64,000 bases of DNA from Escherichia phage MirsaeidiM_Esher1. Where the stretch lies: sequence record PQ438048.1; one strand, written 5' to 3'. Numbering within the stretch: the first letter of the stretch is position 1; each line of letters begins with the position of its first letter. A program made the position numbers and the translations under genes. The notes under the pieces are model-generated. The model searched no databases, had not been told where the DNA came from, and saw only the letters and a program-made list of their open reading frames with translations. This document shows positions 15,415 to 16,413 of the stretch, one piece after another.

Positions 15415-16413
15415 ATGACAAAACAGATTTCGGCTAGTATTATTGCGCATTCCATCACTGAAGACGGAAAAGAGATTGTAACTTTTGAACTAGAATATCC
15501 ACGTATTATTCATTCAGAATTGATGACTCACCGCCTGTTCAGTCGTAATGCTGCTTCTAGCCGTGCTATACCTGTTAAAACACTGATTGAAATGGTGCGA
15601 AATCAACCTGCTCGTCCTTATCGTTTTGGGGCTAACCAACCTGGTATGCAGGATAAAGGTGTTGATCATGACGCTCTTATTGATGCAGGTTATACTGCTC
15701 GAGAGTGGTGGGATCTTGCCGCGCTTAGTGCAGCACGTTTTGCAGAAGAATTCTCTTTGGCAGGGTACCACAAACAAGTTGCAAACCGTCTTCTGGAACC
15801 TTTCCAACGAATTAAAACAGTTCTGACAGCAACAGAATATGAAAATTTCTGGTGGCTACGTGATGACAAAGAAGCCGATCCTACTATCGAAGCTTTGGCT
15901 AAAGAGATGCACAAAGAGTATGAAGGATCTACACCAGAAGTGCTGAAACCAGGGCAATGGCACACACCTTATGTAGACCATTTCTATGATACTATTGGCA
16001 CAGAAGGTGACGATCATTTTGTTTTTGGTGGATACTACGTTCAAAATGAATCTGGAGAAGTCGTTGTGCTTACTTTGGAAGAAGCCAAAGCTATTTCAGC
16101 TTCGTGTTGTGCACAGGTTAGCTATCGTCGTTTAAATGCAACTAAAGATAAAGCTTTAGATATCTATGGTCGCTTGCTGACTGGGCGCAAGGTTCATGCT
16201 TCTCCGTTTGAACATCAAGCCACTCCAATGCAAGAAACATGCGAACAATACGGAGAAAACTGTTTTGAAGATTTGTTTATCAATGCTCCTTGGGATTTTA
16301 ACTCTTGGGAACCAGGTATTACCCATGTAGATCGTAATGGTAAGTTTTGGTCTGGCAATTTCAAAGGCTGGATTCAACATCGTCAACTTTTAACAAATCA
16401 TACTAAATGGTGA
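15415..16413 (+). CDS. ThyX-like flavin-dependent thymidylate synthase family protein (atypical)
   Basis: ELMTHRLFSRNAASSRA resembles ThyX signature RHRx7-8S; HASPFEH near C-terminus; unusually long (332 aa); sits where td lies in T4. Confidence 0.5.
   Translation: MTKQISASIIAHSITEDGKEIVTFELEYPRIIHSELMTHRLFSRNAASSRAIPVKTLIEMVRNQPARPYRFGANQPGMQDKGVDHDALIDAGYTAREWWDLAALSAARFAEEFSLAGYHKQVANRLLEPFQRIKTVLTATEYENFWWLRDDKEADPTIEALAKEMHKEYEGSTPEVLKPGQWHTPYVDHFYDTIGTEGDDHFVFGGYYVQNESGEVVVLTLEEAKAISASCCAQVSYRRLNATKDKALDIYGRLLTGRKVHASPFEHQATPMQETCEQYGENCFEDLFINAPWDFNSWEPGITHVDRNGKFWSGNFKGWIQHRQLLTNHTKW

Follow-up and report, generated by a model that had tools for sequence, protein, structure and literature searches.

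Flavin-dependent thymidylate synthases (ThyX or FDTS; Pfam PF02511) are homotetramers whose active sites are built from three subunits, and they regenerate tetrahydrofolate, not dihydrofolate. In the canonical proteins (TM0449, PDB 1O26; Rv2754c; PBCV-1 A674R) the N-terminal ~58 residues come first in the chain. Here we describe a ThyX-family protein of Escherichia phage MirsaeidiM_Esher1 in which the corresponding residues appear to lie after the canonical C terminus. The protein is encoded by an open reading frame (ORF) of 332 amino acids (aa) at positions 15415..16413 (+) of the window, i.e. the whole stretch of 64,000 nucleotides that was analyzed (record PQ438048.1). Compared with canonical ThyX it carries Thr at the position of Arg78 and Ala at that of Tyr91, and it adds an N-terminal strand, a linker with a W-H-x-P-Y motif, and a 65-aa C-terminal extension.

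Roles of individual residues have been described for the Thermotoga maritima enzyme. Arg174 activates dUMP, Ser88 and Ser30 hydrogen-bond the flavin C4=O, and His53 from another monomer stacks on folate/flavin. Arg78 stabilizes the anionic reduced flavin, and mutation of Tyr91 lowers the rate 100-1000-fold (PMC11940539, PMC8316439).

Two further enzymes serve for comparison. PolB (PDB 4P5A), the UMP/dUMP C5-methylase of polyoxin biosynthesis, matched canonical ThyX end to end in phmmer, and its segment order appears canonical. PolB stems from a Streptomyces antibiotic gene cluster, whereas the phage gene belongs to a dNTP-synthesis module, and no specific sequence relationship past the shared family was seen between the two. 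Thymidylate synthases of the ThyA type (T4 td, E. coli ThyA; PF00303) have the same expected product, dTMP, with an unrelated fold and mechanism. The phage protein showed neither a Thymidylat_synt Pfam match nor a tblastn match to E. coli ThyA. ThyA makes dihydrofolate and is usually paired with dihydrofolate reductase (DHFR), whereas neither a ThyA nor a FolA homologue was found in the window or in the ~136 kb examined of phage ukendt (99.5% identical; genome of 151 kb). In T4, td lies directly upstream of nrdA, and the phage ThyX gene is likewise located upstream of nrdA.

Identification of the Phage Protein as a ThyX Homologue

The phage protein matched the Pfam Thy1 profile (PF02511) with 33.2 bits (E 5.6e-8, gathering cutoff 24.8). 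The match was limited to positions 59-190 of the 191 in the profile and to aa 22-174 of the protein. A match to PHROG_85, "thymidylate synthase," was obtained with E 3e-108. When the single protein was compared with the PDB by phmmer, no ThyX was found; a family profile was needed, and its matches were ThyX chains only. The AlphaFold2 monomer model had a predicted local distance difference test score of 93.7 and a predicted template modeling score of 0.91. With this model, every top Foldseek match in the PDB was a ThyX, and in a search of BFVD all named significant matches were viral thymidylate synthase/ThyX-like proteins. A first-pass annotation made from the sequence had proposed an atypical ThyX-like gene at this locus, either a divergent thymidylate synthase or a ThyX-fold enzyme for a different modified pyrimidine, and the profile and structure matches support the ThyX assignment.

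The same annotation had placed the ORF upstream of nrdA and estimated it at about 100 aa longer than typical ThyX, and both statements hold. The gene for NrdA lies at 17190-19436, with two small ORFs between. Solved ThyX proteins comprise 208 (Helicobacter pylori), 220 (T. maritima), and 250 aa (Mycobacterium tuberculosis) and, for the PBCV-1 chain, 217 aa, so that the phage protein exceeds them by about 80-125 aa. The extra ~110 residues are accounted for by the N-terminal strand, a longer signature loop, the W-H-x-P-Y linker, and the C-terminal extension.

Order of the ThyX Segments

The protein begins with an extra β-strand (aa 1-20, strand residues E6-14; 15415..15474, +), which is seen in the secondary structure of the model and lies outside all Pfam and PDB alignments. 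This family-specific strand carries Ser13, present in 132 of 133 homologues. The following core (aa 21-185; 15475..15969, +) corresponds to canonical ThyX residues ~59-200, according to the Pfam Thy1 match at 59-190 and HMMER alignments to T. maritima ThyX. It holds β3, α3, the signature loop, and the helical region with R125 and R149, the equivalents of Arg147 and Arg174. The loop after the signature is ~20 residues longer than in canonical ThyX, and the linker before the next segment carries the invariant W-H-x-P-Y motif (aa 182-186). The canonical N-terminal third appears to be relocated to aa 186-268 (15970..16218, +), a placement drawn from the profile alignment, a domain match to doubled T. 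maritima ThyX, and in silico re-permutation with controls. This segment would contain β1-β2, a helix with S236 (the counterpart of Ser30), a further helix, and the sequence HASPFEH. The latter (aa 261-267; 16195..16215, +) aligned to His53-Glu-Thr-Pro-Phe-Glu-His59 of T. maritima ThyX and ends 65 aa before the C terminus. The remainder (aa 269-332; 16219..16410, +) is a family-specific extension of ~65 aa with no counterpart in the ThyX profiles; it contains the conserved residues Asn315 and Gln321 and the invariant Arg323.

The T. maritima, M. tuberculosis, and H. pylori ThyX sequences used for alignment are 100% identical to the PDB chains. The family profile aligned to T. maritima ThyX in three non-collinear pieces, with family positions 212-256 matching residues 20-62, 23-52 matching 61-90, and 129-173 matching 155-199. 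Against a doubled T. maritima ThyX sequence, one continuous hidden Markov model domain was obtained with 27.7 bits, in which family positions 135-264 covered residues 160-220 followed by residues 1-67. When aa 196-270 were moved in silico to a position before aa 22-185, the Pfam Thy1 score rose from 33.2 to 46.7 bits, and the coverage extended from 59-190 to 14-190 of 191 in a single stretch. For the same construct, TIGR02170 gave 46.0 bits instead of 30.6, with a match over positions 16-207 of 211. In the Pfam controls the core alone scored 29.8 bits, four shuffled segments gave 30.4-35.0 bits, and the reversed segment and the C-terminal extension used in its place each gave 29.3 bits. Only trimmed constructs showed the effect. 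Rotation of the whole sequence (aa 186-332 followed by 1-185) did not extend the Pfam match; in this arrangement both parts are separated by the C-terminal extension (65 aa) and the N-terminal strand (20 aa).

The secondary structure of the model follows the order strand-helix, signature loop, helical core, strand, two helices, three strands, two helices, and short helix. We take the initial strand-helix to be β3-α3, the two helices after the single strand to lead up to the canonical C terminus, and the last strands and helices to be the N-terminal hairpin, α1, α2, and the P-F-E-H region of ThyX.

We read this arrangement as a circular permutation because one continuous domain crosses the junction of the doubled T. 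maritima ThyX, the classical signature of such a rearrangement. In the whole branch, the canonical order A-B would be changed to B-A. Part A would comprise β1-β2, the folate-loop helix with Ser30, and the His53-x-x-P-F-E-H motif; part B would comprise β3, the RHR...S.RY loop, and the helical core with Arg147 and Arg174. The first-pass annotation had pointed to an H-x-S-P-x-E-H-like segment near the C terminus and to an unusual motif order. Both are borne out, and the unusual order extends to the entire family. No description of the permutation was found in the literature searched, which did not include subscription-only journals.

A tandem duplication was considered as well, since the sequence GWIQHR at aa 318-323 resembles QWFRHR. 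In hhalign comparisons of the C-terminal extension with the N-terminal region and of the C-half with the N-half, the probabilities were 0.1-0.4%. The idea of a duplication remnant was therefore dropped.

Signature Motif and Active Site Residues

The ThyX signature, ELMTHRLFSRNAASSRA (aa 35-51; 15517..15567, +), lies in the gapless alignment to T. maritima residues 61-90. It reads T-H-R-x7-S-S-R-A and differs from the canonical R-H-R-x7-S with a following R-Y. Conservation was assessed in an alignment of 133 homologues with 38-85% identity. Within the gapless stretch, T38 corresponds to Arg78 (Thr in 129/133), H39 to His79 (133/133), R40 to Arg80, S48 to Ser88 (132/133), R50 to Arg90 (133/133), and A51 to Tyr91 (Ala in 133/133). 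The alignment further pairs E35 with Gln75 and S43 with Ser83, both phage residues being at least 90% conserved, N45 with Asn85 (129/133), and A46 with Glu86. Outside the signature, the invariant residues R125, N144, R149, and S236 align to Arg147, Asn169, Arg174, and Ser30, respectively. In the relocated motif, H261 (133/133), E266 (at least 96% conserved), and H267 (132/133) align to His53, Glu58, and His59.

By alignment, the dUMP-binding and -activating arginines (Arg90, Arg147, and Arg174) and Ser88 are present, as are the flavin- and folate-site residues His53, Ser30, Asn85, and His79. Among the T. maritima residues whose roles are given above, the phage branch lacks only Arg78 and Tyr91. 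In solved canonical ThyX proteins the RHR triplet was found in 5/5 and Tyr at position 91 in 4/5, the exception being Phe in Corynebacterium glutamicum. The Thr in place of Arg78, which had been pointed out in the first-pass annotation, is a real deviation that defines the family, and the Ala in place of Tyr91 is a second one. The protein thus has neither the full set of canonical residues nor the normal order of segments. The function of His53 from another monomer is compatible with a relocation of the HASPFEH segment.

The invariant positions in the 133 homologues are H39, R50, A51, G77, M78, K120, R125, N144, R149, H183, P185, S236, H261, and R323. S13, R30, E35, T38, S43, N45, S48, S49, E266, H267, N315, Q321, and others are conserved to at least 90%. 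The gene itself is an ordinary one, a common and already annotated phage thymidylate synthase beside nrdAB. What seems to be new is a permuted ThyX architecture that lacks Arg78 and Tyr91 and in which G77-M78, K120, H183-x-P185, and R323 are invariant.

Predicted Function and Alternative Interpretations

The phage protein is probably an active flavin-dependent dTMP synthase. Such an enzyme would bind FAD and, with NAD(P)H and 5,10-methylene-tetrahydrofolate, would convert dUMP to dTMP by methylation in the same way as canonical ThyX. Together with the phage ribonucleotide reductases it would raise the amount of dTTP available for replication of the phage DNA, without the need for a DHFR. The analysis shows the ThyX fold, the non-collinear order of the segments, the retention of most residues for substrate and flavin, and the two replacements. 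From these we infer that the enzyme depends on flavin, that it acts on dUMP to give dTMP, and which oligomeric state it has, and family-specific invariant residues such as Arg323, Arg238, His183, and Lys120 may stand in for Arg78 and Tyr91. The annotation of ukendt (1-50 kb and 60-146 kb) lists no ThyA, DHFR, or other thymidylate synthase, tblastn with E. coli ThyA and FolA yielded none either, and the lack of ThyA and DHFR fits an enzyme of the ThyX type that regenerates tetrahydrofolate. In the BASEL study, the Vequintavirinae and their relatives, among which the phAPEC8 cluster was placed, were "exceptionally susceptible" to restriction-modification (PMC8594841), which argues against a protective replacement of thymidine.

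Several observations weigh against an active dTMP synthase with a permuted fold. The positions of Arg78 and Tyr91 are occupied by Thr and Ala almost throughout or throughout the family, and with this loss the chemistry may differ in detail or outcome. The cutoff of the NCBIfam thyX equivalog TIGR02170 (87.9 bits) was reached neither by the native sequence nor by the re-permuted construct. E. coli has its own ThyA, so there is no obvious need for the phage gene in making dTMP. The permutation is deduced from sequence profiles and the order of secondary structure elements and not from a superposition. No biochemical or genetic test of a branch member was found in the literature outside subscription-only journals, and no solved structure of one was found, PDB searches included.

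One alternative is an enzyme that has the ThyX fold but a different reaction or substrate and that would supply the phage with a non-canonical pyrimidine. Such a change is conceivable because both missing residues act on flavin-mediated steps: the exocyclic-methylene intermediate might be directed to water, yielding 5-hydroxymethyl-dUMP, or dCMP or UMP might be methylated, the latter as by PolB. We regard this as unlikely. The family is found in more than 1000 genomes of phages from many lineages (N4-like, ICP1, PAK_P1-like, and phiCbK-like), and none of these phages is known to carry modified thymine. Moreover, the arginines that bind and activate dUMP are invariant, and no hypermodification genes (kinase, aminoacyl-transferase, etc.) are annotated nearby downstream. 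That the entire branch diverts the exocyclic-methylene intermediate to 5-hydroxymethyl-dUMP or another C5-pyrimidine, or uses another nucleotide, appears quite improbable. If it did, N4-like, rV5/phAPEC8-like, ICP1, and PAK_P1-like phages would feed an unrecognized nucleotide into their metabolism.

The similarity of the HASPFEH region to ThyX could also be due to chance or convergence, in which case an unrelated domain would have been added to an N-terminally truncated ThyX core without the His53 segment, and no true permutation would exist. The match of the relocated segment by itself was weak (9.7 bits, E 3.9 against the whole PDB), and the alignment across the junction was obtained only with doubled T. 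maritima ThyX and not with that of M. tuberculosis or H. pylori. However, given a ThyX target, the conditional E value was 2.2e-5, and the match comprises 43 residues including Ser22, Ser30, His53, Pro56, Phe57, Glu58, and His59. The gain of 17 bits in Pfam and 15 in TIGRFAM arose only with the segment in the canonical position, compared with 0-5 bits for shuffled, reversed, or unrelated segments. In the model, the order strand-strand-strand, helix, helix, short helix agrees with that at the start of canonical ThyX, which has a two-strand N-terminal hairpin. Both S236 and H261 are conserved without exception, and H261 is a target of inteins. We consider an unpermuted protein very unlikely. Less credible still is a ThyX-like protein that has lost catalysis and serves in regulation or nucleotide binding, although the absence of Arg78 and Tyr91 and the failed equivalog cutoff speak for it. 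Such a protein is difficult to reconcile with ~14 invariant and ~37 nearly invariant positions that are centered on the active site motifs and persist down to 38% identity, with the location of inteins at these motifs, or with the purifying selection reported for roseophage homologues. The ThyX homologue is also the sole thymidylate synthase candidate found in the ~136 kb of the ukendt genome that were examined.

ThyX serves as a drug target and poses a mechanistic puzzle, and current models assign important roles to Arg78 and Tyr91. If active, the permuted branch would be a natural experiment that could tell which elements of the active site ThyX requires and how a multi-subunit site tolerates permutation. 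The permutation would also explain the half-matches in profile annotation, namely the partial Pfam coverage, the NCBIfam failure, and the frequent label "hypothetical protein"; a permuted profile would annotate the branch cleanly. For phage biology the message is an ordinary one, that of a phage with its own thymidylate synthase beside its own ribonucleotide reductases.

Distribution of the Branch and Intein Insertions

A phmmer search of 1.84 billion cluster representatives yielded 4984 clusters (50% identity) at E<=1e-3, of which 1614 reached E<=1e-30. By tblastn, the branch was found in 1034 phage records, among them rV5-like, phAPEC8-like, ICP1, PAK_P1/KPP10-like, N4-like (including roseophages), and phiCbK-like phages. 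N4 gp30 and the roseophage genes named thyX in the literature are members of the permuted branch (PMC2784036, PMC11934525), and for the roseophage homologues a dN/dS of 0.18, indicating purifying selection, has been reported (PMC11934525). A scan of 185,579 prokaryotic species genomes (one each) with a 10-sequence alignment, which is limited by the pattern and not exhaustive, gave 31 loci. Most of these are on contigs of metagenome-assembled genomes, many of 40-130 kb. We suspect that they represent phage contigs or prophages and that the branch is phage-borne rather than cellular.

Three records labeled as Campylobacter phages B15, A110a, and C2 (MG065650.1, MG065689.1, and MG065655.1) contain the gene at 53-98.5% protein identity to the coliphage versions. 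They resemble phAPEC8-like/rV5-like enterobacterial phages, and their host labels look doubtful.

Inteins typically occupy functionally critical sites, and the permuted ThyX branch is a hot spot for them. Among 150 listed cluster representatives of the branch, 17 exceed 480 aa. Domains of the Intein_splicing, HNH, or LAGLIDADG type were detected in six of seven long homologues scanned; in the seventh, P0143, the LAGLIDADG match was below the threshold, and an eighth scanned protein, P0257, showed Thy1 only. The long homologues include P0128, P0135, P0143, P0144, P0157, P0171, P0200, P0227, and P0254, in addition to others. The insertions fall at no fewer than five sites, all within conserved motifs. 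Mapped onto the phage protein, they are located after His33, after ~Leu41 just past T-H-R, between Ser48 and Ser49, just past Arg149, and, in several homologues, directly after His261 of the relocated motif.

Gene Organization and Genomic Neighborhood

The window is part of the genome of a phAPEC8-like (Phapecoctavirus, Stephanstirmvirinae) E. coli myovirus, and between 14000 and 18000 it shares 99.3-99.7% identity with phages WPEC1, ukendt, phAPEC8, and others. Public entries of this gene carry different labels, namely "FAD-dependent thymidylate synthase," "thymidylate synthase ThyX," "putative thymidylate synthase," or "hypothetical protein." Direct reading of the sequence reveals the Shine-Dalgarno motif AAGGAG (15404..15409, +) at a distance of 5 nt from the ATG; the motif overlaps the stop codon (15403-15405) with which the preceding gene ends. 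This gene (14797..15405, +) encodes an NT5C-like 5'(3')-deoxyribonucleotidase homologue (Pfam NT5C 26.7 bits, cutoff 24.8; PHROG_420, labeled "unknown function") and is separated from the ThyX start codon by 9 nt. The ThyX ORF is probably the second gene of a two-gene unit and co-transcribed with the NT5C-like gene, because σ70-like near-consensus sites are found at 14750-14777, upstream of the latter, and at 16430-16457, just past the ThyX ORF. In an rV5-like phage, too, the counterpart of the NT5C-like gene (L005 4206-4736; 37% identity) directly precedes the ThyX homologue.

Downstream, the two small ORFs (16479-16922 and 16919-17173) belong to PHROGs of unknown function. They are followed by the class Ia ribonucleotide reductase large subunit NrdA (17190..19436, +; Pfam Ribonuc_red_lgC, E 1e-97) and the small subunit NrdB (20472..21560, +; Pfam Ribonuc_red_sm, E 2e-33). 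In four unrelated phage groups (phAPEC8-like, rV5-like, Nankokuvirus, and ICP1) a ThyX homologue adjoins nrdA/nrdB or lies close to them, and in an N4-like phage it is located near a dCTP deaminase. In Pseudomonas phage PS24, a 124-aa ORF (gp088; L003 5904-6278) directly downstream of the ThyX homologue is also labeled "thymidylate synthase," and neither of the small ORFs downstream of the ThyX gene in the window corresponds to it.

The region between nrdA and nrdB (19397-20460) contains an ORF at 19445-20104 (+) for a 219-aa HNH endonuclease (PHROG_953, E 1e-56), whereas phage ukendt (91-99% identical) has only ~66 bp in this slot. The ORF looks like a free-standing homing endonuclease. In T4, the same intergenic slot is occupied by mobE.

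Relative to ukendt, 1.87 kb are absent at window position ~22385-22388 (L001 23393-25261), which hold genes annotated as dTDP-glucose 4,6-dehydratase and glucose-1-phosphate thymidylyltransferase. With these two genes missing, the phage-encoded dTDP-rhamnose pathway is incomplete. The genes kept downstream are, by annotation, dTDP-rhamnose 3,5-epimerase (22379-22969), 4-dehydrorhamnose reductase (22963-23805), and glutaredoxin (23805-24065).

Near 36-38 kb the sign of the GC skew reverses, and gene orientation may switch there. Genes for tRNAs Ser-GCT, Arg-TCT, and Met-CAT are located at 222-788 (-) of the window and appear to be part of a cluster of ~10 tRNAs annotated in ukendt.
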